From contig MU057395.1 in assembly GCA_013265495.1 (NCBI GenBank), forward strand, positions 1-34,972: DNA of 34,972 bases, given 5' to 3'. The position numbers and the translations under genes are program-made. The notes beneath the pieces are model-generated. The model had not been told where the DNA came from and did not search any database. It was given only the letters and a program-made list of their open reading frames with translations. Source of the DNA: Vicugna vicugna. Its lineage: Eukaryota. Positions 1,899 through 34,972 of the stretch are shown in pieces. The number at the start of each line of letters is the position of its first letter. The first letter of the stretch is position 1.

Positions 1899-4039
1899 CA
1901 CTGACTTCTGACTTCTCTCCAATCTCTGTGTGATATTCAGAGAAATTTGCTTATAGATTGTAGAGTATTTTAACTGATGTAAAATTAATGTTTTTAAGCT
2001 TTTATATTTAATCATACAATATTGTCTATAAATAAATATGTGTAGTCACATTTTACGTGTTGCTAGTTTTTAGGTTAAGTGTGTTTAATTCTTATAAACT
2101 ACCTAAGCCATGATGCTCACCCACCAACCCCTGCCACGTAGTCCACGTGTCTGTTTTTGCATTATCTTTCCTGAATGTGTGTATGTTTCCTGCTGATGCA
2201 TGTGATGACTGCCCTCTCTTCCCTTCTGCACCTTCCAGTCAATGAATTATCATCATTGATGCTACACTAGTAGGGATTCAGATGTTTCTAATGTACAATT
2301 AGTGTTTGATGTCTTGGAGTTTTCTGACATCAATCAAGAAAAATTATTTTCCCCTTGTGTACCTGGTTCATTTGTTTTATGAGTATATTTGCTTTATTGT
2401 TTGACCTATTGCAATCTCTTCTTCCTGAGATTGGGCAGTCTAGGTTGTGACCGTGTACTCAGCTCCAGTGTTTCCAAAATAGAGAAAAGTCACTAATTGA
2501 GGATTATGGCTACACAAAAGTTAAAATTCTCTTAGTAAATTTAGTCTTCCATTCAAGTAGTTATATCAAATTGAGATGTAGAAGGAATATAAAAATACAT
2601 ATATGTATTCATATTCAGTCTACCCACCTTCCTTTCATTTTTCTCCTAACCTCTCAGATGATATGTGCATCCTTGTGAAATTTACTCTGCTCTTCATCTT
2701 TGACCATTTTTCAGTCCTTGAAATATATCTCTTTCTATAAGACATTGCAACTTACTTTATAATAGAAATTAGTAAACAGATTGACAATAAAGTGTAAGTA
2801 TCTGTTTTCTGAGTATTGTATCTTTCAGAGTGCTGAATGTGAACACAGGGATCTGTAAGAGGTTTTCATTCCAGTCACAGTGCTATTTGTAGGGAGGATG
2901 AGAAGAGGAATGAAAGGGCATGCTTGTATACTTCTTTATACAGGAAGACATTCTTTTTAGTTTGAGGTTGAATACACTGTGTATTTCTTATATTTAGTGA
3001 GATAGAGATTTTTTTTACGTATCTTAAGAAATCTCCCAGGCAGTGAGATTTATCTACATAAGGGAAATTCACTCTAAAATTTGACATCTGAATAATGTAT
3101 CTTATATACATTAAAAATGTAAATTATTACCAAATTTCATTTTTGTTTCCAGAGGAAAATATAACCTAGATCCTACAAAGGCAATTACAATCAAAGAGAC
3201 AAACTTTATCATGCTTACTCCTCTGTTAATAAATCAGAGCTTCTAATGGTTGTTTAAACACAGCAAATTTAAAATTACAATGTTAAAGTCATGTTTTAAT
3301 AAAGGTATTTGTATCTTCACATTCAGGGCTTGTCTGGGAATACATAGATCTCCCTTTGTTCAGCATCTCCAACAAATTGGGAAGATTTGCATATCCTGCG
3401 CTTAGTGCTATTATAAATATTCAAATATTTTCTTGCTTTCTCCATCACTAAAACAAAAATAAATCATATTAAGGGCTGAGGAAGTCTCCCCACTGGGTGG
3501 AGGAGATGCATTTTAAACCATCAGGACACAGAGACATGCTTTTCCAATGTGCAATGTGACTTTTCTCTTTAATTTGCCAAAAATGCCACTAAGTGAAAAA
3601 AAGAAACAGTCCCTACTGACCTGCAGTCAAGAACCACTACTTAATTTCCTGGGTAACGAAGTGTGGCACAGACACAAGTAAAGCAGTCGTCAGTGGGGAC
3701 TGGGTCCTTGAGACAGGAGGATGTTACAGCAGCGTTTGACACAAGTCAGGAGGACAGCTGTAGCATTTCAATTACACAGCTCATTAAAAAAACCTCACAT
3801 ATAATAAGACATTTTGAATATTGTAATTCTTTATTATTTGAATAAAATCCTTTATTATATGAATGTTTATTATTAGTGGAGAATTTCAATCAGGTAAGAA
3901 AAAGTAATAGTTTATAACATTATCCAAGGTGACTGCTTACATTAGAGGCCTTATCTTTCCAGATACTCCTTTCTGTAAATATGTAGACTGTGTTTCTCAT
4001 GATTACATAAAAATTTGCAACCACATCTGATAATCGGAT

Positions 4040-9969: not shown

Positions 9970-10498
9970 GACTTCCTTAAGAATGATGCAGTGCTTCTGA
10001 TTGAGTCATTGATGACTTTCTTCACTTGCTTATTTCTCGGTGTATAAATAAATGGATCTAACAGGTGAAATGGAAGAAATGAGTAGTGAGACCACTTTAT
10101 TAATAGTCACTTCTTCCTTGGCTGTAGGAATTATGTGGATGAACATGTACGCACCACAAGTGATGGAAACCACAATCATGTGGGAAGACAGGTGGAAAAG
10201 GCCTTTTTTCTTTGCTGGGCACATGGAAGTCCTAAAATTGTCTTGATGATTTAAGCATAGGATAGAATTACACACATAAGAGTAAAGTGAGGGTTGGCAA
10301 AGCACAGATTACAACAATTTGCTTGATGAACCATGTGTCTGAACATGATATTTGAGGAGGGGGAAATCATCACAGAGAAGGTGATCAATTTGACTCACAG
10401 AATTTCAGATTTAGCCCCAGACTAAGTGGGGAGGTTATGAGCAACATTCCAGCCAACCAAGAGCAAAAAACAAGTCTCTGGCAAACTCTACTGTTCAT
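9970..10498 (-). pseudogene. 5'-truncated olfactory receptor pseudogene fragment, OR6C-like (intracellular loop 2 to C-terminus)
   Basis: Across shifting frames: MNSRVCQRLVFCSWLAGMLLITSPLSLGLNLKFCESN; SSHMIVVSITCGAYMFIHIIPTAKEEVTINKVVSLLISSISP; PFIYTPRNKQVKKVINDSI. Several frameshifts; clearly paralogous to 1147-1627; TM1-TM3 absent. Confidence 0.9.
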
Positions 10499-11033
10499 CC
10501 ATGTAGCTACAAATGGCATTATTTTATTTTCTTCTATGGCTGAGTAGTATTCCACTGTATAAATATACAACAACTTATTTATACAGTCATTTGTCAATGG
10601 ACATTTAGGTTGTTTCCATGTCTTGGATATTGTATATAGTGCTGCTATGAACATTGGGGTGCATGTGTCTTTTGAATGAAGGTTCTGTCTGGATATATAC
10701 CCAGGAGTGGGACTGCTGGATAATCTGGTAAGTCTATTTTTAGATTTTTGAGGAATCTCCGTACTATTTTCCATAATGGCTGTACCAAATTACATTCCCA
10801 CCAGTGTAGGAGGATTCCCTTTTCTCCACAGACTCTCCACCATTTATCATTTGTGGACTTTTGAATGATGGCCATTTCTGATCAGTGTGAGGTGATACCT
10901 TATTGTAGTTTTGATTTGCATTTCTCTGATAATTAGCGATACTGAGCATGTTTTCATGTGCCTATTGGCCATTTGTATGTCTTAATTGGAGAGTTGCTTA
11001 TTTAGGTCTTCTGCCCATTTTTGGATTGGGTTG
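10493..11033 (-). mobile_element. L1 fragment: ORF2 C-terminus and following region, 3' end and poly(A) missing
   Basis: Peptides [35 protein letters not shown] and KDTCTPMFIAALYTISKTWKQPKCP are L1 ORF2 C-terminal motifs. Confidence 0.92.
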
Positions 11034-14343: not shown

Positions 14344-14344
14344 C

Positions 14345-15604: not shown

Positions 15605-16160
15605 ATTTTTTAGAGTCATATGGCATTTTTCTTTCTTTCCCGTCCACTTCCCTTAGAGTGACAATCTTCAGGTCCATCTGTATTGCTGCAGATGGCATTA
15701 TTTTCTTCTTTTTGTATGGCTGAGTAGTGTTCCATTGTATATATATATACCACATCTTCTTATCCAGTGACCTGTTAATGGACATTTGGGTTGTTTCCAT
15801 GTCTTGTCAATGGCAAATAGTGCTTCTATGAGCACTGGGGTGCATGTGTCTTTTTGAATTTTATTTCCCTCTGGATATATGCCCAGGAGTGGGATTGCTG
15901 GATCACATGGTAGGTCTATTTTCAGTTTCTGAAGGAACCTCCATACTGTCTTCCATCATGGCTGCATCAATCTGCACTCCCACCAGCAGTGTACGAGGGT
16001 TCCCTTTTCTTAACACCCTCTCCAGCATCTATCATTTGTAGACATCTCAATGGTGGTCATTCTGGCTGGTGTAAGGTGATATCTCATTGCAGTTTTGATC
16101 TGCATGTCTCTGACAACTAGCAATGCTGAGCATTTTTTCCTGTGCCTATTGGCCATTTGT
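15605..16160 (-). mobile_element. L1 fragment: ORF2 C-terminus and following region
   Basis: [49 protein letters not shown] is the L1 ORF2 C-terminal region; reverse-complement similar to 13793-14330. Confidence 0.92.
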
Positions 16161-16161
16161 A

Positions 16162-16210
16162 GGGCGGTAGGGTGGCAGGGTGGTAGGGTGGGCCCAGGGT
16201 GGGCCCACCC
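16162..16210 (+). repeat. G-rich micro-repeat / potential G-quadruplex with 14-bp palindrome
   Basis: Seven GGG tracts in 42 bp, (YAGGGYGG)x4, ending in the perfect palindrome GGGTGGGCCCACCC (16197-16210). Confidence 0.75.
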
Positions 16211-16214
16211 CTTC

Positions 16215-17910
16215 ATTGGGGAATTGCTGGGTCATAGGCTGTGTTTTCCATAGTGGCATCCAGTTTATACTCAGATGAGCATGTGTGAGCTTCCCTTGCT
16301 CCACAGTCACCAAGCACCTGATGTCCCACTTTTCATTTTGTCTGTCTGCTGGCTTTGTGATGGATTCTGATGGAGGTTTTAATTTGCATTTCCTTGGTGG
16401 CCAAAGAGATGGGGCATCTTTTCATGCTAACTGGCTATTTGAAAGAATTTTCTAAAGTACTTATTTAAGTCATTTGCTGGTTTTTTGTTTTGTTTTGTTT
16501 TTTTGTGGTTTTTTGGTGTTTTTTTTTTTTTTTTCTGTTGGCATGTCTATCTTAGGGATTTTTACAAGTTATTTTCCATATGCAAGCTTTCAGTTGGTTA
16601 CACGTTTTGTAAATATTTTTTATTCTGTGGGTTGTGTTTCACTCTCCATCTTACTCTGTTTGGACTGCTATAACAAAAGCACCATAGACTGGGTGGCTTC
16701 GACAACAGACGGTGATCTCTCACAGTCCTAGAGGCTGGCAGTCTAAGACCAAGGGACGGGCAGAGTCCATGTCTGGTGAGGAGAGGCTGTTTCTGGGTCA
16801 TAGTCTGCTGTGTCCTCTAAGGAGCTCTGGCGTTCCTGTTATAAGGGCACTAGTCCCATTCACAAGGGATCCATCCTCGTGACCCAGTCACAAATGTTCT
16901 TAATTGTAATGTGGTCCTGTGCATTAATCTTGTTTTATGGTTAATGCTGTTTGTGTCTTGATTAAGAAAAATCCCCCTAGCCTGAGGTCATGAAGATATT
17001 TTCCCGTTATTTTGTAAGAGCTTTATTTGCCTTTCACATTCAGGTCTATAATCATCAGAGTGATTTTTGTGTGTCTGTACGGATTAGGGTGTATTTAGGT
17101 TTTTTTCCGTGTAGACAGGTGGTTGTCTCAATGCTGGTTACTAAGAAAATAATTTTTTAACCACTATTATAGAGCCACATTTGATATGTATCAAGGGTCA
17201 TATATAAAGAAGGGTCTATTTCTAGATTCCCTATTCTTTACTGTTGGTTATTTTTCTAGCTTTATGCCAAGAGCACTCTGTTTTAGTCACTATAACTATA
17301 AACATTCTCAGTACATGGTAAAGGAAGTCTGTTCATCTTATCTTTAAGAATATCTCGACTATTCCTGGGCCTTTTTAATATTATCATGTAAATTTTAGCA
17401 GAGTTTGCCACAAAAAAAGTTTGTTGTTTCTTCTTTTTCTTTTTTTTTTTAATTAAAGTGTAGTTAATGTACAATATGGTGTTAAGTCCCTGTTGGATTT
17501 TTGATTGGCATTTTATTAAGTCTATAGATCAGTTTGAATCTTTCAGTTCGTGAACATGGTATACTTCTCCATATATTTGGGTCTTTTTAAATGTCTTTAG
17601 TCTTTTCCATTGACTTTTGTCTTCTTTCTTTTCTAGGTATTTTTTAATGCTATTTTTATTTTAAAATTTAATAATCTATCTGCTGGTATATTTTGAAATT
17701 CAATTTTGATTGGTTTTTTAAAAATTCATCTCCTTGTTTAATTCTTACTAATTCTCATGTTTTCTGATGTCTTTAAGGTATAGTCATATCACTGGCAATT
17801 AGTGACAGTTTGTTTCTTCCTAACCCTTGTAGCTTTCCCCTCCCCGTCCGCCTTTCCTTTACTGCACTGGCTAGGACCTCCAGTAAACTGTTACATGGTG
17901 ATGGTGATTG
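16215..17910 (-). mobile_element. Ancient L1M fragments (interrupted by an MLT1A LTR and a short young L1 tip at ~17430-17487)
   Basis: Antisense L1 phrases: GAATTGCTGGGTCATAGG, GGTTTTAATTTGCATTTCCTTG, CTAGCCTGAGGTCATGAAGATATTTTCC, CTGTTGGATTTTTGATTGG, TTACTGCACTGGCTAGGACCTCCAGTA. Confidence 0.7.
16648..16890 (-). mobile_element. MLT1A/MLT1A0-like ERVL-MaLR LTR (partial)
   Basis: GGACTGCTATAACAAAAGCACCATAGACTGGGTGGCTT...CTCACAGTCCTAGAGGCTGG...GTCTGGTGAGG...TTATAAGGGCACTAGTCCCATTCA matches the reverse complement of the recalled MLT1A0 consensus. Confidence 0.85.
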
Positions 17911-19226
17911 CAAGTGTTTTTTTTAAAGGACTGAAAAAACCAAAATGGAACATGCAAACCCTAATCCAGAGAAAATCGAGCCAAATTCTGCATTGAGGTC
18001 TGTCTTAACTATGCAGCTCTGGGTTTGGGGTTTTCCTTCTTGGTTTTTGTTTGTTTGTTTGTTTGTTTTTTTACCATATATATTTCATTGTGTATTGCTA
18101 AAAGATAATGTTTCTTTTAAAGACTATTACATCTAAAAAATGAATAAATCCTTATAATCACATTTCCCCCAATTGTTTCATTAAAGGGGCTTAAAGGTTG
18201 GGCATTAGACGGTGTATATAGTTATACAGTTATAATGATATATTCATCTACTGTGCCTCCCTGATTCCCACACCTCAGAGAGATTGTGATTTATCCAGAA
18301 TCCCACATCAAGTTGCGGTTAGAATTAAGGGTGCATTTGGAAGTGGAAATACCTTCCTTTCCTGAATTTTAAGCCCTTTTTTGTGCTGCCACTTTAGTGT
18401 TTTTGTTCATCGCAGGTTCCATCTTGAGCATCCCGCCCCCTCCTCCAGCTGTGCCTAGGAATTCTTGAATTTGTCTTCTTTCTTTAACTGTAATTGAAGT
18501 TCTCAGTCTGATAATATCTAATCCGTGTCAAAGTCCTTGAGCCCCACCTTCCAGTTTACCTTGTCCTTTTCTAAAGTGTCCTTTGAAAGCTCTTTATCCT
18601 GAGTAATAATTCTTTTACTCTAAGAGAAAGTGGCAGCCATGAACCGCATAAGCATGAGAATTTGTCTGAAATTTTTTAAAAATTTTCAGATTGATTATTA
18701 CAAAAGTAATCACTTATTTAAAAAGTAAATAAGTAATATATTTGTTTTAAAATTTTCAACAATGTGTAACTATATGAAGTAAAAACCGACTGTACCATGG
18801 TCCTGCCCACTTCTACCTCACTCCTTCCTCAGTGGTAACAATTGTTAAGTTTGCACATCTCATTCTAAACTTAACCTTAAATAGATACACCCAATATATT
18901 ATATATACTTGTATACATACATAGTTTTTTGTTCTTTGAAGATACTCAAAAGGTTTTACTTATGCTACAGAGCTTTTACTTATGCAACAGTCAATGTATT
19001 TTACAGGAAAGGTATTCTTCCCCTTGCAGTTAGTGCTGGATAGCTGTCCTTTTCATTTTTCCTGTATGACTATGTTGTAAATCAGGAAAAACAGGTTAAG
19101 AGAGTGCCTACAAATACCAGGAAGACTTGTAGGTAGATTTCCACTTCATATAAAGGCATAAAAGGATGTAAGTAGTATGGAAACTAAACCATTTATAAAT
19201 GCCATATAGCATGCATTTTTGAAAAG

Positions 19227-19332
19227 TTTTTGTTTGTTTGTTTGTTTTTTTAGTGGAAGTACTGGGGATTGAATCCAGGAATTTGTGCATGCTAAGCATG
19301 TGCTCTACCACTGAGCTATATCCACTCCCCCC
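19227..19332 (-). mobile_element. tRNA-derived SINE, camelid Vic-1-like
   Basis: Reverse complement reads GGGGGAGTGGATATAGCTCAGTGGTAGAGCACATGCTTAGCATGCAC..CCTGGATTCAATCCCCAGTAC (Pol III A and B boxes) with a (CAAA)n tail. Confidence 0.88.
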
Positions 19333-20459
19333 TTAAAAGTCTTAAAATAGAACTTAACCTACCAAAGTACCAAAAAGGACCAAATTTACAATTAGTTTAG
19401 CAAAGTTAGCTTGTTTGAAAGTTAGCTTTTCTTGTTAAAAAAAATCATCTTCAAGAAAATTTGAGAAATACAGAAAACAGAAAAAAAAAACCTACGCATG
19501 GTCATATCATAAATGTTAATAGCCAGACTCAGGCAGATTATGGCAGTAAGTAGTCTGGATTTCTTTCTCAGAACCCTTTCCTCCAAATCCCAGGTGGGAT
19601 TTTATAAGAAGGTCTCTCTGAGGCTCAAACTTATTGCAATATAAAAACTTTATTTAATCTAATTTTTAAAAGATCCCAAATAACTAAAATGTACTAGACA
19701 AACTGAATAGAATTTCTCTCTTCTCTTTATTGCCATGAGTCCTCTCTTTCCTTCTCTTGCTCCCAACTTTCATATAAACGCACTGAATTGGAGTAAACCT
19801 TAGGGTTGGCCCGTTCGGTATTTAGGAAAACAAATTTTACCAAGTCCTTTGGCATCGCTTCTAATGAATAGAACATTTTTGTTTTGTGGCCCTGCGGCAA
19901 CATAGTACTTCAGAAGGAGAATCTCCTAGCCTAGAGGAATCCTCTGAGAGCTGGCCGAAACAATTTGAACTCAGCTTCAATGAGCATCCGCTTTTTTTTT
20001 TTCCCGCTCCTTTTGGAATGACAGTTTGAAACGTTAGAAAAAGTTCATTTCTGAATTTTATAAAATTTCTAGCAAAGAGACAACTGAAGTACCCCTCGAA
20101 ACACATTTCACCAAAAACCTTTTTAATTTTTTTTTTTTTGGGCATAACAAAATCTTTGTGAGGTAGGAAAAGCAAGAAGTTAGGAGAGAGGAAAGCCTCC
20201 CACCTAGGAAATCTCTCTTTGCGTATTTCCTAACTAGCTACGGTACTTGGCACGGTAAGTGCCTTTCTCCTCCAGCCTGGACGTGTTGCTGGCTCGCTCC
20301 TCCAAGGAAGGGAACGAGATGCTGCGGGGTTTAGTAACGGTTCACTTAAAATGGATCCGCAGCGCAAGTCTGCAGTAGCACATTCAGCTAATGAAGAACA
20401 GGCTTCTGCATCAAGTCTCTGGACGCCCCTGGTACCTTCTAGTTCTGTCGTTAGGGTTC

Positions 20460-21000
20460 ACCTGACGTTGCTATATAAAAATTAGCACACTGATCCTGTA
20501 AAGCCCGCCACCTCGCCAGCGTCGCTCCCATTCTTCCCCTGCTGCTGGGAGCGGGGGGCCTGCCCTGTGCCCGCGCCGCGCTCGCTGCAAGAAGGGGTGG
20601 CACTCCCAGCCTGTCGGTCCCCGGACTTAGTCACCGTCACACGTGTCGCAGGGCGGCGCGGTTGACGGGAGCCGCCTGTCGCCCGGAACCGGCGCGCGCC
20701 GGTGACGTCACGGCGGAGGCTGCGCCGCGCGCCCGTTATGGCGGCTCCTGGGGCTGCGGCGGAGCGGCAGGGAGCTCGTCGCCCCGGCCTCCTCCTGCCC
20801 TACAACGGGGGAGGAGACGCCATCCCGCTGCGGGAGCCGCACGAGCGAGGTAAGCGGGCGGCGGTCCCCGTCCCGCCCGTCCCCGGCGCTCCCGCCGTGG
20901 CGCCGGTGGTCGCGGCCTCCGGCGTGCGTCCAGGTGCCGCGAGGAGCAGCGCTGCCTGAGTCCTAGGGCGCTCCGGCGGCGGTGACGATGAGCACGCTTC
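20460..21000 (+). promoter_or_regulatory. CpG-island promoter of the CLCN3-like first exon
   Basis: Dense CpG/GC at 20500-21000 against an AT-rich background. Full CRE TGACGTCA at 20703-20710, E-box CACGTG at 20640-20645, TATATAAAA at 20472-20480, YY1-like ATGGCGGC overlapping the ATG. Confidence 0.8.
20738..20849 (+). CDS. CLCN3: CLCN3-like alternative first coding exon (ClC-3c-type N-terminus), diverged
   Basis: ATG in strong Kozak context (GTTATGG) gives MAAPGAAAERQGARRPGLLLPYNGGGDAIPLREPHER-G. The second half matches the recalled ClC-3c N-terminus (..YLPYDGGGD(N/S)IPLRELHKR-G). Donor AG|GTAAGC at 20850, phase 1, is compatible with the exon at 32112. Confidence 0.8.
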
Positions 21001-23134
21001 TGTATTAAGGCAATTTCATACACGTTCAAGTGGTTAGCTACAGTGCCTGCCACAGGGCTCTCGTAGGAACTTACTCGATGAAAACATAGAGGATAATTTT
21101 CACACGTCAGAAAAAATAATAGTAGTTTGTGAAAACCAGAAAAGCGCCCAGCATTCATGTAAACCGTTTGGCAGGCACTGCCAAAACTGATTACATGTTA
21201 AACTGCCTTTTTTTTTTTTCATTTTTCTTGGACTGATTATTCTAAAAATAGGCTTACAGTTCTAGAAAGATACTTGAACCGCCAGAAAAATCTCTTAGCT
21301 AGATGACTTCGTTTATGAGCCACATTAGTTTGAATTTCCTGCATGATGTTGTAAACTCATTTTATGGTTTAATCTGAACTTTAATTTATGAAGAAAATAA
21401 GGAAGTCATGATTTTCCTGAGCGTGTTTAGCCTCTTTTATTTAAAATAGGATTTGTATTCTGAGAACACTTTTTTTTAAAGCATTAAGTTCCATTAGGAT
21501 TAAAAAATGGTAACATACCTAACAAATATTTATCGGTTGCACTGTGTCTACCAGACCAGACAGTATTAGGCTCTGAACAGTGGCAACATTATTTATATAT
21601 ATCCTGTAGTATTCTGTTGCTAGTAAAAGCTTGATTTTCAGATTTTGAGAAAAAATATATGACGATCATGTTACGTATGTTGTGCTTTCTGTTAGTTACC
21701 TTCTAGTAAAATACATTTATGTATATATAAATTATTCTGGTGCATTTGGGGAAATATCTAAAAGCACAAAGAAATTAAAATTTAATGGTCTTAGCACCCA
21801 GAATTGTTGGGTTTGTTAGTTTTTCCAGTTCAAATGTGTTCCTAAGCTCTCCTTTTTCCTCTGTTCCCATGATTCCTTTTTTTGGTAAGGCTTTCTTTAA
21901 ACAGGAAGCTACGTGAATGAATGGTGACCGTTAAAATGTCACAGTATTTGTTAATCAGTAATTAAACTGTGTTTTCTCTGAGCTATTATAACATTTGTTT
22001 GTTGATTTATAATAAACCAGAAGACCTGGGCTTGGGACGTTTAAATTCCTAGTGTTAAATTTGACCATCTTGGACAGAATGTATATATGGACCCCACCTC
22101 TGCATGGGAAAGAAGTCATAGCTTATATGAGAGTAGGCATGGTTACTGGTATGGTTATTACTAAAATATAAGCTCTTTATTTCTGTTATATTTTCATAAA
22201 TAGTCCTTCAGGAATTTTGCTCAAGGTGGAAATCAGTCCCACTCTTGGCAGCCTAAGCAGATTCCTTATCCTTTGATGAGCACTTACTCAGTTAGCAGAA
22301 GCCAGTGTTATTTGAAAGTAACATTGTGTCTTTGTAGTGCAGACCAAGCTGGGAATTAGGCTCACTTGACTCTACTGTAGTATGCTCGTATCTATGGATT
22401 CGAGGTTATTTGTTATCCATAGTTTATGACCTTTTGTGGCCATGGGTCAAAACAAAGGAACTGGAGATGTGGAGACAGGCAGCTAACATAAATAAAGAAG
22501 AGGAGTCAGCTTCCCTGTGAGGACAGAATTAGAATGACTAGAAACATCTCTTGGGGCTGATCAAGAGTGAGGAGGCAGATAATCAAAGTATAAAATTGTA
22601 AAGCATAGCAGCAAAGTAAACACGACTCTTTAGTGAATCCCTGAGTGCTGGAGTTAGGGATTACCTTTGTGGAGCAAACTAAATTTGATGCCACTTGTCA
22701 CAGTGAGATGGTAAGTGATGAAGGTTCCTATTTAAGTGAGTAATAGTAACACTGGAAATGCACGGAGATTAGAATTTGTTAATATATTGCTGGTAGATCA
22801 GAAATTAAGGTGACATTTTAGAAATTATTATCTTTTGGGGTATATTTCCTGTACAGAAAGTTAAGTTCTTTCATAAAATGTCTCTTACAATTTTATCAGG
22901 GAAAATAACCTTTGGTTTATTTAGATTTTAAGTTTTATGCTCTTTCTTCCCTGTTAATGACGTTTAGGTAGCTTGGAGGTTGAATGACTCTAACAGACCC
23001 TTAGAGTGGTTTGATTTGGGGGACCTTCAGCATCATTTAAATATTTCTTGTTTCATTGGAAGTGTTTATTGAGCTCCTTGATCTGAAAGCTACTATCGGG
23101 TGCTGTGGAGAACCCATGGTGGTAGTAATAGTGA

Positions 23135-23270
23135 AATTAACAACAGCTAGTACTTAGACGCTGTTGTGAGTGCTTTATGTGTAGGAATTCATTTATGTGT
23201 AACAAGACATTAATCCTCGTCACAGATCGTGAAGTAGGAACTGTTACAGTCCCCATTTTTGAGCGTTATC
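23135..23270 (-). mobile_element. MIR fragment
   Basis: GTGAGTGCTTTATGTGTAGGAATTCATTTA...AATCCTCGTCACAGATCGTGAAGTAGG..CCCCATTTT resembles antisense MIR. Confidence 0.6.
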
Positions 23271-24557
23271 CAAGTCAGCGGAGTTTGTACGTGCACATGG
23301 GGATTTGATGGGCATCCCTGGTGGAAAGGGTAGCAGCGCACGTGCTCTGGTGGGAGGGAGTGCCTAGTGTGCTGTTCGCTGGTCTGCGCCTCAGTAGAAG
23401 GGGTGCTTCAGGAGGGAAGAGGCCCGACCCTAGAGGACCTTGAAGGCCAGGCTTGTAGCAGTCTCAAACCACAGCAAGTGTGGCTTTCCTTTTGAAATAA
23501 AGTTTGAGGTCTTATTTTTTGTACATTTCTACCTGAAATCATTTCTTGACATCCATTAGCATAGAGATCTATTTAAGTAAAGCTTTTTTCTTCCTGTTAT
23601 AATAGATGAATTTGTTCATTTTTATTCCCTCCTAAAAGTATCAGTAGTTAGCACTTTTTGCACATTATTTGGAAATCTAGGTGTTAGATGATATTCTTAT
23701 AGCCACAGAAGCAATCCTATAGGTTCTTTGTAAAATGATTTTGGGATTCAGGTCCTTATTATACTTTTAGTCAACTACAAAACTGAGCCTCTTCTTACAA
23801 ATTATTTCATCTAAAGTGTCTATAAATTAAAAAGACAAATAGAGATTATTTGAGATCAGAAACTCTTTGTATTCTAAAATAGTATAAAACAAAACTGTGT
23901 TTAAGTTTACTTTGGCCACAGTATATGGATTTAAAATCTTCAGTAAAATGTGGTTCATATACTGCCTGTAGTTCTATTTTCTAAAAATAACTGGCACTCT
24001 TAGTATGATTAATTTTATACCATCTCATAGCTTGCTGTGGTTAAAAATGCTTTGTGTTTCAAAGTATCAAAACGTGAGCAGATCTCCTGCCACGTAGATT
24101 AGATTTGGGATTTTGCCTGTTTTCCCAGCATTGGAGTCTCTGTTTTGTGCTGATATGAGGCCACAGGAGACTGGTGGCTTCAACTGTATTTTAAAGTTTT
24201 GTTTCTGTTTTTCAATAGACATGTTTAATTTGTAGTTTTTTGCAGTTCTTTACAACCTTAATTAGATCAAAATGGATTTGCTTTAGTTTATCAATTTATT
24301 CCTGCCTCCATTTAAAAGAGCAAGTTTCATGAGTCTTCTAATTTATGTGATTTACAAATCACTTTACATGCAGAGGTCCTAAACAAACGTGGAACTTGTT
24401 TTCAGTTATGCTGATGTCTTAATATCCGCTTTATCACCCTAGCCTACGGATACGGCCTTTTATTTTCAAGTGTCGATAGAATGGAGAAGGAGACAGTGAA
24501 TTGGGTAATTCAGCATCGCCACTTACTGATTGTGTATCCTCTGTCAACTTTGGGATT

Positions 24558-24860
24558 TTGATGTCAAGCAGGACTCTGTGGGCTTCCCCCCAACCCCTGC
24601 CTCTTGTTTGTAGAACACCTGACATCTCCCAGGCCTCCCTGAGTCATAGAAGAGCAGACTCCAGCAGCTGATAGGACAAGCCTGCAGGCACTAGGGGAAT
24701 GACGATTCTGAACACCTGTCTCATTGATTAACTGAGATTACTCCCCCGTTTCCCTTTAAAACTTTCATGGCTCAACAGAATCTTTGGAGATGGTTTCTTG
24801 GGGGGGCATACTGGGTCCACCAGGTTGCAGGCATTCTGACTAAAAGCAACTTTCCTTTTT
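24558..24860 (+). mobile_element. ERV1-type LTR fragment
   Basis: CCCTTTAAAACT TATA-like box, GGAGATGGTTTCTTG, CCAGGTTGCAGGCATTCTGACTAAAAGCAACTTTCC (decayed poly(A) signal region) resemble ERV1 LTRs; family not determined. Confidence 0.55.
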
Positions 24861-25441
24861 GTTACCAAAGCTGTTGCCCCCAGGGTCATACCCCTGCCCC
24901 TCCCTGGACTACAAACCAGTTACTATTATCTAAGTCTCAGGAGGCAGCTTCAGAGAGAAGACACAGAACCTGTTAGAACCAAGATGGCAGAGGATCTGGC
25001 TTCCAGTGGACCTTGGGCCTCCTTATATGCTCGTGGTAATGTGTTAAAGACATACCCACCAGTGCCACAACAGTTGGCTGTTGCCATGACAACAACCAGA
25101 AAGGCCCATACAAGGGCTGACTGGCTCCATCACACCCAGAAGGAGGACATGATGGCAGAAACCTCCCATAAAAGTCCACATGGCCCGACCCAGGTGGAGC
25201 TGTCTCCACCAGCCAGCTTGGCTGCCGGCTCCCCACTCAAGCGCCTTTTCCTCACTTAAGCACTTTTCTTCCCTTCTCCCTTCTCCAGCACTTTCCTTCC
25301 ATTTCCTCGTTTCCTCGGTTGAGAAAGAAAGCAGCTTTTGCTGTGTCCCTCTGCTTCAGCTGTGAATTCTTTCCAGCTGGCAGGGAAGATCCCACCTTTT
25401 GTGGGGTCTCCATCCTAAGGAGGAGTCTTCTGCTGCTGACA
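24860..25441 (+). mobile_element. Solo LTR, ERV1 (MER41-related)-like
   Basis: Begins TGTTACC and ends CTGACA; contains CAAGATGGC..TGGCTTCCAGTGGACCTTG..ACCCACCAGTGCCAC..TTGCCATGACAAC and a GAATTCTTTCC 3' motif. Confidence 0.6.
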
Positions 25442-26214
25442 GTTGGCTTTACCTTCCAAGTCTTTGCAGTTTAAATAGACAGCAGTTAAATGTGACTGGG
25501 GGTGGTGGGATGAATTTAAAGAGCAAATGCTCCATTACCTTCGTTTATCCAGCAGACGTGTAGTTGGCCACCTGCTGAGTACAGGCTCTGTGTTACCCTG
25601 TTCATCTTTCATTTGGCCGTTTGCTGACATTCTGGAACTTCCACTATCAGCTTACCACGTTCACTTTCCCCTCCCTCACCAGGGTGACCATTTCTTACCA
25701 GTAAGGTGGCCGAGGGAAGGGAAAAACACACTGGGGACTAGACTTCCGGCTCCAAATGTATGGTTGAAACTGGGTTGTCAGGGAATATGTAGAATTTTAG
25801 ATTTCTGCCTGCCTTCTTTCATAACTTTTTTTTAAAAAGTATGTTTTGTGTGTGTGTGATAGGTTAGTCATCTGCCTGTAAGCTTAAGTGGCAGGGATCA
25901 CTGCTGTCACATCTTTTGGGATTGACCCCGGAGGTAACAAGTAGCAGTCTCAGCAGACAAATAAATACCTACTTTTGCATGTAGAACTACTGTTTGAATG
26001 TTCCTCTTTGAGAAGAGGCGTAGACTGCTGAAGGTGTGTGATGGTGAAATTTACTAATGGATTCATTCAGTTTTAAGTGTAACAGTTTAGTATTTTTTTT
26101 TCAGATCAGTTCAGCAAATATATGTTGAGGACTAGTGGGTGGGAATATAAAGGCTTTTATTTATGGGGAAAGCAGGTAATTTCACTAACGTCTATATTTC
26201 TGTAGTTATGTTTG

Positions 26215-26422
26215 TCGAATTACAGGTTTCATCATGTTGGGTTGTGACCAGTATTTTAAAAAAGAAAGGAAGGAAGGAAATAGAAAGTGGAAATATCAGA
26301 ATATATGCCAGATATTAAATATGCTAAACTTTGGTTTTACTCACGTGTGTATCTGTACACTGTGTCAGCGGGAAATGTTTCTTGCTCTGTGGGCCACAGT
26401 CAAAAGAGTTTGAAAATCAGTT
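26215..26422. mobile_element. hAT-Charlie non-autonomous DNA transposon fragment (MER112-like; family uncertain)
   Basis: TGGGTTGTGACCAGTATTTTAAAAAAG...GAAATATCAGA...CTGTGGGCCACAGTCAAAAGAGTTTGAAAATCAG is a hAT-type end. Confidence 0.55.
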
Positions 26423-26783
26423 TCTAAGTATATACCTGGAGGGGCACTTGGGTCCACGTTCTGTGCCGGAGATGAGTCTGGAACTATCTGAGGACAGGAA
26501 GAGGGCGTGTTCTGTCCTAGACCTCTGCTGAGTGAGGCACGGAGTGTGAGGCCGGTACCAGAGCAGTGCTGGTGACAGCTGCTGCAGCAGAAGGCGATCT
26601 GGAGCCAGAGGCAGAGGGGGCTCTGATGGCGGCTGGGCTGTCCTGATAGTCTGAGTGCTAAGTGCCTCCTGGGAGGAGGTAGCACAGTCCCTAATCTGCT
26701 TAGAGAGAGGGGCGTGTCCACGTGTCCTAAAACCTGCCAGCAGATAAACCATAGAATTATTTTTAGGCAGTATTTTAGGCCGT

Positions 26784-27035
26784 ACAGTGTGTAGTGGTAA
26801 GAAGTATCTCTGGAATCAGAGTGCTTGAGTTTGGATCCCTGTTCCACTGCTTACTAGCTGTGTGGCCTTGGGCATGTCTCGTAACTCTCTGGGTCTCATC
26901 TTTCTAGTTGATAGAATGGAGATCTTAATACCTGTCTCCTGGGTTGTTGCGGGGGGTAAATGAGCTAATACATGTGAAGTGCTTAGAACCACATGTAGCA
27001 CACCGTACGTGCTCAGGGCATGTTAGCGGTTTTAT
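26784..27035 (+). mobile_element. MIR SINE, near full length
   Basis: GTGTAGTGGTAAGA..CTCTGGAATCAGA..GCTTACTAGCTGTGTGGCCTTGGGCA..GGTTGTTG..TAAATGAGCTAATACATGTGAAGTGCTTAGAAC. Confidence 0.9.
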
Positions 27036-27134
27036 CGTCACAACACAGCACCTGGCCGCTAGGTGGGAAAGGTTGGTTTGATTCTGATGTCATCTGGTTT
27101 ACTATGTGTGTTCTTCTGCCACCTGTGCTTGTTT

Positions 27135-27333
27135 TACCTACTCCCAGGATCACAAAGATTTACTCCTCTTTTTAGGCATTACAGCCTCAGCCCTTACATT
27201 GAGGTCTGTGACCTGTGTAGAGTTAATTTTCATGTATGGTGCAAGGTAGGTAGGGTCTGACTTCGTTCTTCTATATGTAGGGAGCCAATTGTCCCAGCAT
27301 CATTTGTTGAAAAGACTGTTCTTTACCCATTGG
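27135..27333 (-). mobile_element. L1M ORF2 fragment
   Basis: GAGTTAATTTTCATGTATGGTG...CCAATTGTCCCAGCATCATTTGTTGAAAAGACTGTTCTTT. Confidence 0.75.
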
Positions 27334-27931
27334 TGAAAATATTTCTTTAAATAATAACGTAAAATTTAATTCTCCTACAGATAATTTTTAAACTTTTTGT
27401 TTAGATTATAGATATTAATAAACAATAAATCTGTGTTTACATGGGTGTGCATGAAATTTACAAAGTTTTGTGTCTAGGGAAAAAATAAACAAGGCAAAAA
27501 GTCCTCTTATCAATGAAGTTATTTTTGCAAGAAGGCTGCAGGCCAGTTACAGCTCATTGACTGGACAGTTTTCCCTCCTGGCTGAGGTGTTTTAGTGTTA
27601 GTCATGCTTGAACTATGAGGTATTGTTGTGATATTTAAATTATAGAATGTCCACTTTGTGGAAAGATTGGTCACTGAACATGCATTCTAGAAATTTGTTT
27701 TTCTGTCCATACCAGGCTTGATTATCTGTTAAAAATCTACAGAATTTTTGCTCAGTATGCAGTTGTAGACGAACCCAGAGCTTAAATTTGTGAAACACTT
27801 TTTTCTCCTCTTTGTCATATTATTATTCTTTTGGTTAAGATTAATACCATGTGAGTAATGAAATACAGCTTGATGAAATTCTAAATGCCAAAATATTTGA
27901 GCAGAAGCGATAACTTGCGTTTATTGATCTC

Positions 27932-28504
27932 CTATTTGTCGAGGTTATTAACAGGTGTTTTACCTCTGGTCCACGCCCCACACTCTGGAAGCAGGCGAGA
28001 AGACCCAGGCACCTGTAAGAGGTTACTAAGTGGTCTGTGCTGCGCCTGCAGCCGGGCACGCAGTGCAGCTGGAACATGACTCTGGGCTTTCTGACCTCAG
28101 AGTGTGCTAAGGTCGCAGAATCTCTCTACCAGGCCACTCTGGAAAGAAAGTGATCTTTAGTCTTTTCTAGATGCAGTTTTCAGCCATTAGATAGTAGAAG
28201 GGTGGTCGCTGGCAGCTACTATTTGTCAAGGTTATTAACAGGTGTTTTACCTCTGGTCCACGCCCCACGCTCTGGAAGCAGGCGAGAAGACCCAGGCGCC
28301 TGTAAGAGGTTACTAAGTGGTCTGTGCTGCGCCTGCAGCCAGGCACGCAGTGCAGCTGGAACGTGACTCTGGGCTTTCTGACCTCAGAGTGTGCTAAGGT
28401 CGCAGAATCTCTCTACGAGGCCACTCTGGAAAGAAAGTGATCTTTAGTCTTTTCTAGATGCTGTTTTCAGCCATTAGATAGTAGAAGGGTGGTCGCTGGC
28501 AGCT
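27932..28504 (+). repeat. Tandem duplication, 2 x 286 bp
   Basis: 27932-28217 is repeated at 28219-28504 (period 287); 7 mismatches counted by eye. Confidence 0.97.
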
Positions 28505-29621
28505 GGCGGTCAGACCTCCAGAAAAGTTTTTGTCTTAATTTTGGGTGCTGCTACTTTCAGATCTCACTCTTACAGTCCGAGGTCTAGGGATCTAGGTAAC
28601 GGGAATTGTCCTGTGTCCTTTAAAGTTCAGTCCTTAAGATTAATAGACTTCCCCTGTCTTTGTATCACTCTGCTCGAGGCTTGCATATCCAGGAGACGGA
28701 GTTTGATGAGCCCACCCTGGGTGGCGTGCTGTTTCCTTAGCTGGGGAGGGGAAGATGCTCTGGTTGACATCCTGCATTCAGTGTTCGCTAGAAGTTTTCA
28801 AAAAATAATTGGCTTGTTTCAGAAAGACGGGGAAAGGGTTACCAGGTGGGCAGAAGCAGCATTCATTGTTTAAAATTGTAACCCTTTCTGTATTAATTCC
28901 TATTCTCACTGCTTCTCTGAGTGATCAGGAAGGACAGATTGCAGCCTACATTGCAGTTCACTTGACTTCTGCCTGCACAGTCATAGAATTGGTCCCCGTA
29001 TTGGCACGGTGGCTCTGGGCACCTCCCTTCCACCTACCCCAGTTGATTCAAGACCCTCTTCTGCTCTGATCTAGGCAATACTGATAGTGGCAGGGGAAAA
29101 TCCAGATTCCAGCTTTGCCACGCGAGCATTGTGTGAATGGCTCAGCATTTATGGTAGTTTCTTTGTGGGTAAACAAAAGACGACACACATCAGTTTAAAC
29201 CATCAGACTTGTAGAAGAGAAGTTTGGGAATTTTGCTCTTCTCTTAGAAGCCACAAAATAGAACAGGTTTCATTTTTACAGTGTTTGTGTATACCATCAA
29301 CCTTGTGTTCTGTATCAACTAGTACATTTTCATTTAAATGACACACTTTTAGGTGTTTATTTTTGGCATGAGGACTGTATTACTGCCACAGAATATGAAG
29401 ATGTAATCTAATCACTTATGCTAAAATCACCTATTTGAAAAATTATGTACCAGCTTTGCTAAGTTTTTAGGGCTTTAGAAAAATTCTGAATGCCTTTTTG
29501 CTTATACATACGTCTTTATTGTAAGGTAATAACATATACCTTATAGATGCTTAATATTTAAAGACGACTTTGTCCAAAGTTACTTAGCTGGGTAGGACTA
29601 GAATCTGGGCGGTTGGTAGCA

Positions 29622-29976
29622 GTCTGTTTCTGTTTTGTGAATAAGTTCATTTGTGTCATTTTTTTAGATTCCACTTGTAAGTGATATCATATGATACTTG
29701 TCTTTCTCCGTCTGACTTACTTCACTTAGTATGATAATGTCCATCCATGTTGCTGCAAATAGCATTATTTCATTCTTTTTATGGCTGAGTAATATTCCAT
29801 CATGTATATATACACCACAGCTTCTTTATCTAGTCATCTATCAGTGGACCTTTAAGTTGCTTCCATGTCTTGACTGCTGTGAACAGTGCTGCTGTGAACA
29901 TTGGGGTGCATGTATCTTTCTGAATTGGGGTTTTCTTTAGATATACGCCCAGGAGTGGGATTCCTAGATCATATGT
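29622..29976 (-). mobile_element. L1 ORF2-end/3'UTR fragment
   Basis: TAAGTTCATTTGTGTCATTTTTTTAGATTCCAC..TGACTTACTTCACTTAGTATGATAAT..CCCAGGAGTGGGATT; homologous to 10500-10730 and 15610-15910. Confidence 0.88.
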
Positions 29977-30766
29977 TGGGCTACATCCTTTTTAACTGCT
30001 GCATTGTATTCCATTGCACAGATGTCCATCATTCATTTAATTATCAATGAATGGGACATTTCTGTTGGTTTGACTTTTGCAGTATACAAATAAAGTTTCA
30101 GTGAAAACTTTTAAGTCTTTGTGCACTTGTAGAATTGATTCCTATAAGTGGAAACTTTATATTTTAATAGATATTTCCAAATTGTCCTTCCATATGGTTG
30201 CATCAGTCTTTACTTCCACTAGCAGTGAAACACTCAAGTTTGCTAATTTTCACTCTTGGGTTAGGGTGACTGTTTCTTAGCTAGCCTGGTTTTTGTCCTT
30301 CAAACTCTTTCCTAATGGTGTAATATAAACTGTCTTTCACAGTCAGTATTCATATCACATACATGTTTCTTTTTTCAGAAATAGGTATAAACATATCTAA
30401 CATCAAATATTTAGCTGTAATTATTGTGAAACCGTAGCATGATGGTTTCAAATTACAACTTAAAATTTACATTCTTAAAGAAGTTTTCTTAGACTAATCC
30501 CACCTAGTTATAGATACTTCAGTCTTAAGATTTCCTTATCACAAATTAAACATAGGTAACGCAACTAAAATTGACTTTCTAGTGCTTTGATGTTAGAACT
30601 TGGTTTTAAAGTATATTTTGAATTTGGAATCCCCAACTTGTACCTTAAACTCAGGGATGATATTTTTGTTACCTTTGTATCTCCTGTACTATCTAGAAGA
30701 GTGCCACTTACGTAGAAAGTTCTTGATAAATGTCTTCAGGTGACTTTGGCTTGTGCTGTGGAGACT

Positions 30767-30953
30767 GCAGGTCTGGGGTTGAGCCACACCTCACTCTCAC
30801 GTGTTTCGTAAATAAAGTGTGATGATTGAAACAGCCGTATCTGTTCATTTATGTGTTGTCTGTGACCTCTTCAGTGCTTCTGTGGCAGAGTTGAGTCGTT
30901 ATGACTGTACAGCCTCCAAAATCTCAAACGCCCCGGCTCCTTTGCCGACCGCT
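30767..30953. mobile_element. MER58A-like hAT-Charlie MITE
   Basis: GTAAATAAAG..GAAACAGCC..TTCATTTATGTGTTGTCTGTG..GGCAGAGTTGAGT..TTTGCCGACC. Confidence 0.75.
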
Positions 30954-31267
30954 CTTTCAGATCATAAGCGCTTTAGCCTTCATTGTGCTTGCTTTCTAGA
31001 GCACTGGGAAGGTGTCCTGCCCCTGTGCATAATTTATGGATTTATGCAGGTTTAAGTGCTGAAAAATTCTGGAGGTGTGCTTGCTGGGTTGGAGGGCATC
31101 TGTGTAGCTTTGCCTTCCCAAAGAGGTTATACCATTTTATATTGGAACTAATGATTTTTGTGGCAGGGGCCCTTTTCTGCATAACTTTGCCAACTCAGTG
31201 CACTAGCCAACTGTTTTTATCTTTACTAATCTGATAGAAGAAAATGAAATTATAGATTTGATCTGTG

Positions 31268-31418
31268 TTTCTTTTTTTTTTAATGCACTTCTACTTTTTA
31301 TTTTATTTTTGGGGAGAATAATTAGGTTTGTTTATTTTTTAATGGAGGTACTGGGGATTGAACCCAGGACCTTGTGCATGCTAAGCACACACTCTGCCAC
31401 TGGGCTGTACCCTCCCCT
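31268..31418 (-). mobile_element. tRNA-derived SINE, camelid Vic-1-like
   Basis: AATGGAGGTACTGGGGATTGAACCCAGGACCTTGTGCATGCTAAGCACACACTCTGCCACTGGGCTGTACCCTCCCC preceded by a T-rich tail. Confidence 0.88.
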
Positions 31419-32111
31419 CTCTCTTTTTCATTTTTTTGTGTTAGATTGACCATCTTTCCAAGTTTAAGAGCCATTTTCATTTCTTTATTGTGAATTGTCT
31501 TTCAGTCTCCTTCCTTGTAGCTTCAAGTCTGTTACACTCTTATAAGGTATATAGTGGACACTTGTCAAAGATTTCTGTAACTCTGGTGAGGGGACCAGCT
31601 GGATGAGGAGCTGATTCAGAGGAGGATGCGTGAGGCTCCCGGACACTGGTAGTGCATGGGAGGAAGAACTTTGTTACAGGTCGGAGTTAAACAGCAGAAC
31701 CAGCACTGCAGCTGGGGATTTTCTTTTCTACTAGACAGAAATCATTTACATTCTACCAGATGACAGTCATAACTTTCGATTTGTCAATCTTCTGTAAGTC
31801 ATTATCTAACTAACTTTGCAGAGTCTGTGCCATAATCAATAGCAAATAGTAAGTTCAGCAGAGTTCCCGCCCCCAGAGCTTACAATGACTGTTAGGCAGG
31901 TGTGTTTGATTCTCCAGCAAGAGTTTGAAAGGATAGGCCATAGTCTTTCTGCTTTATTTCCATTTTCTTAATGCTTTCCTTCCTCTACTTTATTGCAGTT
32001 ATTTCAAGTGATACTGTTTCTTTATGAATCACTAATGAGCTGCTAAGAAGGTTGCACAGTTCACCATTGTCTCTCATAAAACAGGCTCCTTGTTCCTATT
32101 TTGCTCCATAG

Positions 32112-32268
32112 GGACTCATTACACCGTGACCAACGGAGGCAGCATCAGTGGCTCCACGCACTTGCTGGACCTCTTGGATGAGCCGATCCCGGGTGTCTGC
32201 ACGTATCATGACTTCCACACCATCGACTGGGTGTGGGAGAAGTGTAAGGGCCGAGAGAGGCACAGCAG
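32112..32268 (+). CDS. CLCN3: CLCN3-like exon (N-terminal cytoplasmic region with LLDLLDE motif), diverged and possibly frameshifted
   Basis: Acceptor TTCCTATTTTGCTCCATAG| and donor AG|GTGAGC. Encodes [51 protein letters not shown] versus recalled ClC-3 [51 protein letters not shown]. Homology is clear; functionality is doubtful. Confidence 0.9.
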
Positions 32269-33126
32269 GTGAGCGTTTCCAGGAGCTTTTAAAGTACAGT
32301 GCATAATTAGATCATTTCATAATGACTTTCTGCCAGTGACCTCAGCTTGCCAAAATTTGTTACACATTATAAGTAGATGTAAGTAAATTTCTTTGTTTTA
32401 TAAATAATACTTTTTTTCTCTATGTGACTTTTTTTTAGAAGTTTTTTTTTTAATATCCCCTGTCTTTCTAGAAAGGATTTGAAGTAGCTTAGAATTGAAG
32501 TGTCATGAGACAAAATAGGGAGGGAGGGGAACCATGGCATGTGAGCTGGGGGAGGATCAAGCCAAGGTCCAACCTGGAGGTCAGCATAGTGCTTGGCTTG
32601 GAGCAGCGCGGAGGCTGCGGCCGTGGTTCCAGCTGTTAGAGAAGGAGGCTTTTGTGGCGTGGGGTTTGCTTCCTCTTACCTGCTTCCGTGGTTTTAAATT
32701 CTGAGTATGTCTCAAATTAAGTCCTTTGTAGGGCATGTTGAATGTCGTAGTGAATCACTAATCAAAAGAAGAGTAGCTTTCACTAAAAACTACAACTTAG
32801 GTGCTGTGTTTTGTTGTTGATGGAGGCTTACAAAAACAAATTTTGAAAGGGGAAAAAAAATTCTTGAAAATAAAATTCCAAATTCCAAAAGACTGTTTAC
32901 AAATTTAAGCTCTGAAATTTACTTGTAAATAACTACTTGTGCAAATTAGTCATAAACTTTCATATTAATGTACACGTGTATGAAACCTGAAATTGAAATT
33001 AGATTATATTGTTTACAAAAAGTACTGCTTCTGAGATTCAGCAGTCAATATTTACCTTTTCTGGAAACATTTTAAATAGGTATAACTGAAAATGGGACGT
33101 AATACATGCAGTCAGTATTCTAAGAC

Positions 33127-33825
33127 CAGTAGTTCTCAAACCTTCTCATCTCAGGTCCTCTGAAACTCTAGATAATTGTTGAGGATGCCTGAGCTTTTGT
33201 TTATGTGGTTATATTAATAGGTATTTACCATATTAGATACTAAAACTGAGAAATGTAAAAGAATATTAATTCATTTAAAAAATAACTGACAAACCCATTA
33301 CATTTTAGCATAAAAAACATTTTTATGAGGAGGGAGGGTATAGCTCAGAAGCAGAGTGTGTGCTTAGCATGCACAAGGTCCTGGGTTCAGTTCTCGGCAT
33401 CACCATTAAAAATAAATAAATGATAAACTAATTCCCCCCAATAATACTATATAAAGAGAATGAAATTATTAAAAAAAGTTTTATGAAAATAACTACATTT
33501 TCCAAAATATAGAATATTTAATGAGGGAATAACATGTGTTACATATTTATAATCTCATTCATTATCGTCTGGTTTATTTAAAACTGCTGGGTTCTCGTCT
33601 ATGAAGAGAATCCAGCCTCACACAACGTGTGGTTAGAAAAGCCGAGAGTGTTTTAAAAACCTTTTCAGATCTTTGTGGATATTCTCCTCTGACCCTGCAC
33701 CATGCTGACAGGTGGTAGTTTCTTAAAGATTAGTTGCAGTGTGTGATGTGAGACTGAATCAGGGAACTTGTTTTCTTCTGTTACATTAAAGTCCCTTGAA
33801 CTTTGGTGGATGATTTTGTAGCCAT
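33127..33825 (-). mobile_element. Charlie1-like hAT DNA transposon fragment (interrupted by a SINE)
   Basis: Terminus CAGTAGTTCTCAAAC, GAGCTTTTGTTTATGTGG, AAACCCATTACAT; minus-strand peptide TLQLIFKKLP and CCAGCCTCACAC (CEAGF antisense) fit the hAT transposase C-terminal domain. Confidence 0.8.
33328..33475 (+). mobile_element. tRNA-derived SINE, camelid Vic-1-like, nested in Charlie1
   Basis: GGGAGGGTATAGCTCAGAAGCAGAGTGTGTGCTTAGCATGCACAAGGTCCTGGGTTCAG with A-rich tail; flanked by AAAAAACATTTTTATGA and AAAAAAAGTTTTATGA (imperfect TSD). Confidence 0.88.
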
Positions 33826-34972
33826 GGGAGCCACTGTCAGCCCAGCGTGCCTGAATCAGACACTGCATGCCCCGTGTCTTGTGTGATTGGTAGGTGAGCG
33901 CATTTGTTCTTGGAAGGATGAAACTTGAGAGTCATGGGCACATCAGGGAGGATCTGACTGTGTTCTAAAGTGAGGGTGGAAGAGGATCCGTAAGACAGTG
34001 TTCAGAAAATTTTAGTGAAAGTTGAAACTAAAAGAAACCACAGCATGTTGCTTTTTTCTCTGATTATGTAAGTAGTCCACGGCCCTGGAAAACACTGCAA
34101 GTAACATCACCATACGTGAAGCAGTCAGTGAGCGTCCCAGCTCTTCACATCCGTCATCTCTCTCCCTAGGGAGGTCAGATACCATTTTCAGCACTTTAAT
34201 GTGTGCTTGTATAAGCCTAAACCCTTGGGAAGCTGGGAAGTTCTACATGGAACTGTTCTTACTGTTGTTCTTAAAACGTCGAATTAAAAGAAAAAACTTT
34301 CTCAGTGCTTGTTCCTGCCTATCCTGTAGTCCTTCTACCCCAGGTTACTTGGAGGCAGATAAACATTGTATCATTTCAAATATTTATTTCAGTATCTTGA
34401 GCAATGCTGTAATCTAATTCTATTCCTATTTTATTTACTAGCTTGACTATTTCCATAGAGAGAGCCTTTCCCTCACCCGATTGTGGGGTACCCTCACGTT
34501 TGAATTGTACAGGAAGGAGGGAGGAAGTGTGAAACCACGCGGCTCCCAAGCAGCCACCAGGCGGGCCCGGCAGGGTCTTGTTTCTGCGTCTTCAAGCACT
34601 CGTGCGCTTGAACACATTTGAGGCGGGGTACGCAGCACAGCTTGTCCTTCGTGATGCCCACAGTGTTCCAGCTTTGACTGCGGGAAGCTTGTTTGGGTTG
34701 GTGCCGTGTCCTTTGACACAGCTTAGTGGACTTTGATATATTCTGGGGAAGACTCAACCTGCCTGGTTCCTGCACCAAACCTGGACTCAGCTCTTCCTAC
34801 CAGGAGACTTGATGTGGTTTGTGGACCCCCTCGCTCTCGAGTTCTGAGGTTCTTGCTACAGATGCAGGTCTCTGGGTGGGTGCTTGTCTGATTTGCAGGT
34901 GCAGCAGCTGTTTGACACTGATTCTGCCCCCAGACTCTCCTGTCCCATTATTTAGTTTAGAAAGTGCTGTAA

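Follow-up and report, generated by a model that had tools for sequence, protein, structure and literature searches.

A diverged, intron-retaining partial copy of the CLCN3 5′ region in camelids, probably a pseudogene

A 34,972-nt stretch of the Vicugna vicugna genome (assembly GCA_013265495.1, contig MU057395.1, analyzed at full length and referred to here as the window) carries two CLCN3-like exons downstream of olfactory-receptor remains. The question raised by this locus is whether these exons belong to CLCN3 itself, to a working second gene, to a decaying duplicate or to a faulty join in the assembly. The original prediction, made from the sequence, described a lineage-specific partial duplicate that would start inside the upstream intron and be driven by the internal ClC-3c promoter, either a ClC-3c-only paralog or an unprocessed pseudogene. 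ClC-3c is a known isoform, described in PMC7940362 as having an N-terminal sorting motif, and its human form is given in PMC13406507 as NM_001243374.2.

The two exons and the intron that separates them have the following layout:

20738-20849, forward strand: exon A, a diverged ClC-3c-type first coding exon of 37 codons plus 1 base
20850..32111, forward strand: intron of 11,262 nt, containing tRNA-derived SINE copies and a 287-nt tandem duplication
32112-32268, forward strand: exon B, a diverged copy, 157 nt long, of the common CLCN3 exon carrying the LLDLLDE motif

Exon A opens with an ATG at 20738, extends for 112 nt and ends in phase 1 at a GT donor (20850-51) in a consensus context (AG/GTAAGC). 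Exon B follows an AG acceptor (32110-11) behind a pyrimidine-rich tract and is itself followed by a GT donor (32269-70, AG/GTGAGC). The last base of exon A and the first two bases of exon B form a Gly codon, Gly being the junction residue in every ClC-3c-type protein compared, and the joined exons comprise 90 open codons with zero stops and zero frameshifts. If the exon B donor were left unused, the frame would reach a stop at 32270-32272 and yield a product of about 91 aa. With canonical splice sites, fitting phases and an intron of 11,262 nt, the predicted pair of phase-compatible CLCN3-like exons about 11.3 kb apart is confirmed.

We performed tblastn searches of the window (word size 2, E<=10) with five CLCN3 proteins. 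Exon B was matched by all five queries, with E values from 5e-12 to 5e-28, and exon A by one of the five (E 1.7e-8), the dromedary product KAB1255892-4, which is the only query with a 3c-type N-terminus. Exon A retains 15 of the 19 residues of the primate form of the ClC-3c core LPYDGGGD-x-IPLRELHKRG, and this core runs into a phase 1 end with the junction Gly kept, as in a ClC-3c-type first exon. All nine 3c-type N-termini compared begin the DPYLPYDGGG segment with DPY, which is replaced in exon A, in KAB1255892-4 and in the alpaca (Vicugna pacos) RefSeq protein XP_072806733.1. A search of representative proteins with the 97-aa open reading frame over exon A returned zero matches.

Exon A, predicted to be of ClC-3c type, was found to lie inside a CpG island, which also contains a short palindrome:

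20250..21250, no strand assigned: CpG island around exon A, with GC of 0.57-0.76 and CpG observed/expected of 0.97-1.10 in 500-nt windows
20703..20710, no strand assigned: palindromic TGACGTCA, CRE-like, 28 nt upstream of the exon A ATG

Base composition exceeds the usual CpG-island thresholds (GC >0.5, observed/expected >0.6, >200 nt) across 20251-21250, and the observed/expected ratio of about 1.0 at exon A reveals no CpG decay. In a GC-rich stretch some 5 kb away (14251-15500), by comparison, the CpG ratio has decayed to 0.37-0.48. The persistence of an undecayed island beside a decayed GC-rich stretch suggests that the promoter region at exon A is still unmethylated, and that the locus may still fire and be transcribed. 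The palindrome TGACGTCA occurs at two sites in the window against 0.11 expected, and the copy near the ATG constitutes a putative CRE-like site.

Beyond these two exons, CLCN3 content was absent from the window. The tblastn searches with the five CLCN3 proteins identified no MESEQ-type exon on either strand, including the intron and the 20.7 kb upstream of exon A, in agreement with the original prediction, in which none was seen upstream. The same searches detected no later CLCN3 exons in the window, all hits outside exons A and B having E>=0.6. A weak match to the next-exon peptide at 22099-22146 (E 1.3-9.5) is out of order, falling before exon B, and was attributed to chance. No Pfam match to the CLC (PF00654) or CBS (PF00571) domains was obtained among the 64 of 81 open reading frames of at least 70 aa that were scanned, so that the window presents two N-terminal exons without the domain pair expected of a functional CLCN3. 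The prediction had assumed that the MESEQ exon precedes the 3c exon, and the 3c exon the common exon. This order, probably also that of mammals, was seen in one collinear gene model, from Naja naja (1/102 proteins with both exon types).

Exon B is strongly diverged. It is identical to Camelus ferus CLCN3 at 46 of 53 positions, with 7/53 residues (13%) replaced, and to chimpanzee CLCN3 at 45 of 53. Among the sequences compared, the positions replaced here do not vary from frog to primates, and the other named tetrapod CLCN3 sequences, judged by eye, show at most about four differences from each other in the common exon. The near-invariance expected of the N-terminal common exon of a functional CLCN3 is thus lost in exon B. 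The replacement of 13% of invariant residues is what leads us to read the copy as a pseudogene. A metagenome scan with exon B returned two loci with 57-60% identity over 20-23 residues, which were judged unrelated.

The manner in which the copy arose is indicated by its intron. The open reading frame of exon B aligns to contigs of the canonical locus with 72% identity over 76 aa, including about 23 codons of the upstream intron, and the intron of the window sits at the parental junction; homology that extends into the intron, together with the parental exon-intron structure, is characteristic of an unprocessed pseudogene and indicates a copy made at the DNA level. A processed pseudogene derived from a retrotransposed transcript was rejected, the exons being 11.3 kb apart and bounded by splice sites.

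Protein searches located relatives of the copy in other camelids. In these searches 79 of 82 candidates passed among longer proteins, 23 of 23 among proteins of near length, and 54 of 128 when XP_072806733.1 was compared with longer proteins. Exactly one protein was identical to exon B, namely XP_072806733.1 (47/47 residues), a 75-aa product on a 29.8-Mb record named 'H(+)/Cl(-) exchange transporter 3-like'. In the second coding exon it agrees with exon B at every diverged residue that it covers, and the product stops after 75 residues, at a codon that the window reads as Arg (CGA, 32252-32254) and that may be TGA in the annotated genome. Its first coding exon is of a less diverged 3c type and is absent from the window, where exon A matches it best (74% over 27 aa; E 6e-10 with XP_072806733.1 as query). 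The last 22 residues of exon A are identical to this exon at 19 of 22 positions, and its N-terminal part has a 9-codon insertion; with about six substitutions over its length, exon A resembles that exon plus the insertion. Since the first exon of XP_072806733.1 is not exon A and is missing from the window, the locus must be more complex than one pair of exons, or multi-copy; a second duplicate copy, an alternative first exon >32 kb upstream, gene conversion and an assembly difference are all possible sources of the mismatch.

Two camel entries point to the same lineage. The 150-aa Camelus dromedarius product KAB1255892-4, three GenBank records of one product whose model skips most exons, joins a 3c-type exon to a SISGS exon and to later CLCN3 exons with a divergence of about 18-20%. 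Camelus ferus EPY83607 contains a partial SISGS-type exon directly before a canonical SISSS-type exon. Both entries have the derived SISGS motif of the window, and the camel copies share with the window the Gly-Leu-x-Leu-Pro-Tyr form of the 3c exon, which places them in the same duplicate lineage. They differ at sites where window and alpaca agree, with Met in place of Val and Lys in place of Glu, and the Val would put the window on the llama/alpaca side. Among the proteins found, the derived residues are confined to alpaca and camel entries, so that the predicted lineage specificity can be put at the level of camelids. The presence of the SISGS motif in both camels and the llama/alpaca group suggests that the duplication predates the camel/llama split. 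The coexistence of SISGS-type and canonical SISSS-type exons in EPY83607 substantiates the prediction of a diverged, intron-retaining second copy and points indirectly, through the genome of C. ferus, to a separate intact parent gene. Together with the divergence of exon B, it rules out that the window contains the true CLCN3. Any counterparts here of the diverged later exons of KAB1255892-4 would lie beyond the window.

The region upstream of exon A was examined for further genes and repeats, and the receptor remains in it were delineated as follows:

1179..2045, reverse strand: olfactory-receptor pseudogene 1, matching Pfam 7tm_4 (E 7.1e-17; 62.5 bits against a cut-off of 27) and broken by an N run at 1628-1712
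10033..10789, reverse strand: olfactory-receptor pseudogene 2, interrupted and spread over two frames

The atlas matches of the first pseudogene are olfactory-receptor clusters at 0.97-0.98. Fragments of the second gave no Pfam match when searched alone, and its 10033-10308(-) fragment is 53% identical to the first over 58 aa. The 7tm_4 match and this identity together confirm the olfactory-receptor nature of both, so that the predicted olfactory-receptor pseudogenes near the copy are two, located 10-20 kb upstream and assigned at the level of the olfactory-receptor family. Between them and exon A, the 10.5-16.4 kb interval is occupied by repeated LINE-like pieces (LINE-like sequence amounting to about 6 kb ahead of exon A) and the GC-rich stretch. 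Pfam revealed no further genes among the 64 of 81 open reading frames of at least 70 aa, a Sha_B_N match at 34076-34414 (20.6 bits against a cut-off of 24.4) being ascribed to chance, and the only Rfam matches were three tRNA-like ones, all coinciding with interspersed repeat copies. No boundary of homology is demonstrated at position 16160, from which the original prediction ran the copy.

This arrangement might reflect an assembly artefact, in which olfactory-receptor and CLCN3-like sequences were chimerically joined or the GC-rich exon A region was drawn from a misplaced paralog. Such an artefact would account for an exon A that differs from the first exon of XP_072806733.1 beside an exon B identical to its second, and the repeat-rich 10.5-16.4 kb interval between the receptors and the copy, as well as the N runs at 1628-1712, 5621-5978 and 6106-6865, speak for it too. 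These are, however, the only N runs in the window, and none occurs in 6866-34972, so that olfactory-receptor pseudogene 2 and exons A and B lie on one unbroken stretch. In addition, the 401 nt around exon B (32000-32400) were recovered from 14 runs, apparently of DNA, which span five studies and four organism codes and contain a 0.91 share of the 44 words sampled. The divergence of exon B is therefore not the error of one assembly, and these runs, together with the identity to RefSeq XP_072806733.1, rule out sequencing error. We consider an artefact improbable. The same share of words was missing in all 14 runs, about the cost of one base difference. RNA runs contained only 0.07-0.14 of the 44 words from 32000-32400 and provide no evidence of expression.

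A second alternative is that the segment from the 3c exon to the common exon was duplicated locally, in tandem or within the gene, and lies within the true CLCN3 locus or adjoins it. EPY83607 argues for this arrangement, as a single 1.96-Mb scaffold contains the MESEQ exon, filler, the partial SISGS exon, the SISSS exon and the rest of CLCN3, and gene models are collinear with their scaffold. That the SISGS exon of this scaffold has the MESEQ exon on one side and the true exon on the other also counts against the original prediction that the copy sits next to an OR6C cluster on a different chromosome. The EPY83607 scaffold is nevertheless a draft and may hold a paralogous contig placed in a gap, and in the window exon A is preceded by a pair of olfactory-receptor pseudogenes and LINE-like repeats of about 6 kb, with no MESEQ exon in 20.7 kb. 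A local duplication of this segment would, moreover, be too small to supply the diverged later exons of dromedary KAB1255892-4. We regard a local duplication as possible but rather unlikely.

A third alternative is a working lineage-specific gene, producing either a short peptide from the ClC-3c N-terminus, dileucine sorting cluster included, or a longer protein through exons beyond the window. At this locus the ATG survives along with both splice sites, 90 codons are open and LLDLLDE is retained, the CpG island is intact, RefSeq annotates it as protein-coding, and three dromedary GenBank records describe one product. Set against this are the replacement of 13% of exon B residues at tetrapod-invariant sites, the loss of DPY, the 75-aa length of the RefSeq product and a dromedary model that skips most exons and whose kept exons are 18-20% diverged. 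A working gene is accordingly improbable, and the original suggestion of a working paralog was not upheld, as the RefSeq model is limited to 75 aa and starts with an exon that the window lacks. We also considered a more elaborate version, in which a camelid CpG-island mini-gene has been kept for tens of millions of years and expresses only the ClC-3c N-terminal sorting region, as a 75-91-aa decoy peptide that would tune trafficking of the ClC-3/ClC-4 exchangers. The sorting region in question includes the LLDLLDE dileucine/clathrin-binding cluster. This scenario is highly improbable.

Taken as a whole, the evidence makes it probable that the copy is a partial, unprocessed duplicate derived from the 5′ part of CLCN3, and that it arose at the DNA level in camelids before their split, has since evolved under relaxed constraint and is now a pseudogene. 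The part of the original prediction that holds is accordingly that of a lineage-specific unprocessed duplicate. Under the proposed course of events, the 5′ part of CLCN3 would have been duplicated in the camelid lineage before camels diverged from llamas and alpacas, and the duplicated segment would have included the alternative first exon of ClC-3c together with its CpG-island promoter, as well as the intron and the common exon that follows it. The copy would later have evolved free of the constraint that holds ClC-3 almost invariant. The share of it present in the window would encode no transporter and at most a short N-terminal peptide, 75 aa long according to the RefSeq model of alpaca and about 91 aa long if the exon B donor is unused, and the locus would today be a probably transcribed pseudogene with a promoter region that may still be unmethylated. 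As exons A and B contain no stop or frameshift, we infer pseudogene status from relaxed constraint and from the short or patchy camelid gene models.

The value of the copy is mainly practical. It is already annotated by RefSeq as 'CLCN3-like' in alpaca, and we found no published description of it in the titles and abstracts of the 12 papers listed out of 18 that name both CLCN3 and camel. Camelid CLCN3 gene models are already contaminated by it, as illustrated by the exon that appears twice in EPY83607 and by the short 'CLCN3-like' dromedary and alpaca entries, and it can mislead CLCN3 read mapping and variant calls. The copy also illustrates, on a small scale, a duplicated CpG island without CpG decay beside exons that drift. 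It has no bearing on any open question about ClC-3 function, unless the short peptide is expressed and active.

Compared with canonical ClC-3c, the window has the same two-exon 5′ architecture, with a first exon that ends in phase 1, a Gly junction and an LLDLLDE exon, and in both the first exon lies within a CpG island. It departs from the canonical form in the replacement of 7/53 (camel) or 8/53 (primate) residues of exon B, in the loss of the conserved DPY and the insertion of 9 codons in exon A, and, relative to canonical CLCN3, in having neither further CLCN3 exons, CLC or CBS domains nor the MESEQ exon. Unprocessed pseudogenes in segmental duplications near olfactory-receptor genes retain their introns, and the intron flanks are duplicated with them. 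In comparison with such pseudogenes, the window displays no disabling lesion in its two exons and no CpG decay, whereas it shares with them partial gene content, relaxed constraint and surroundings rich in olfactory-receptor pseudogenes and LINEs. The locus most likely belongs to a well-known class, that of partial duplicated pseudogenes that retain introns, and is located in repeat-rich, olfactory-receptor-bearing DNA.

The codon at 32252-32254, within the copy of the common CLCN3 exon at 32112-32268(+), reads CGA in the window, and the 75-residue CLCN3-like alpaca protein in RefSeq (Vicugna pacos XP_072806733.1) stops immediately before it. In all 14 DNA sequencing runs holding 0.91 of the 44 words sampled around this exon, the words that were absent approximate the number that one base change within 32000-32400 would cost.

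The following additional features were annotated in the window:

1628-1712, N run of 85 nt
5621-5978, N run of 358 nt
6106-6865, N run of 760 nt
14330-15520, GC-rich stretch of 1.2 kb (GC 0.60-0.66)
19254-19325(-), 31343-31414(-) and 33334-33405(+), one tRNA-like Rfam match each (scores of 30-44 bits)
27929-28502, tandem duplication of a 287-nt unit inside the intron (20850-32111)

The two copies of the tandem duplication share 97% identity in perfect register, and the event looks recent. All three tRNA-like matches coincide with copies of interspersed repeats, belonging to families D6, I4 and I5, and are probably tRNA-derived SINEs rather than tRNA genes. The GC-rich stretch, preceded by an A-run and showing a decayed CpG ratio (0.37-0.48), is flanked by inverted LINE-like arms (13816-14156 and 15783-16138, 75-94% complementary) and has no match in Pfam. 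AT-rich simple sequence borders the longest N run.

The public Camelus ferus CLCN3 model EPY83607 (P0004) is a chimera in which the common N-terminal exon occurs two times, first with the derived SISGS motif of the duplicate and then with the canonical SISSS form, and its MESEQ (ClC-3b-type) first exon is followed by ~115 residues of filler.
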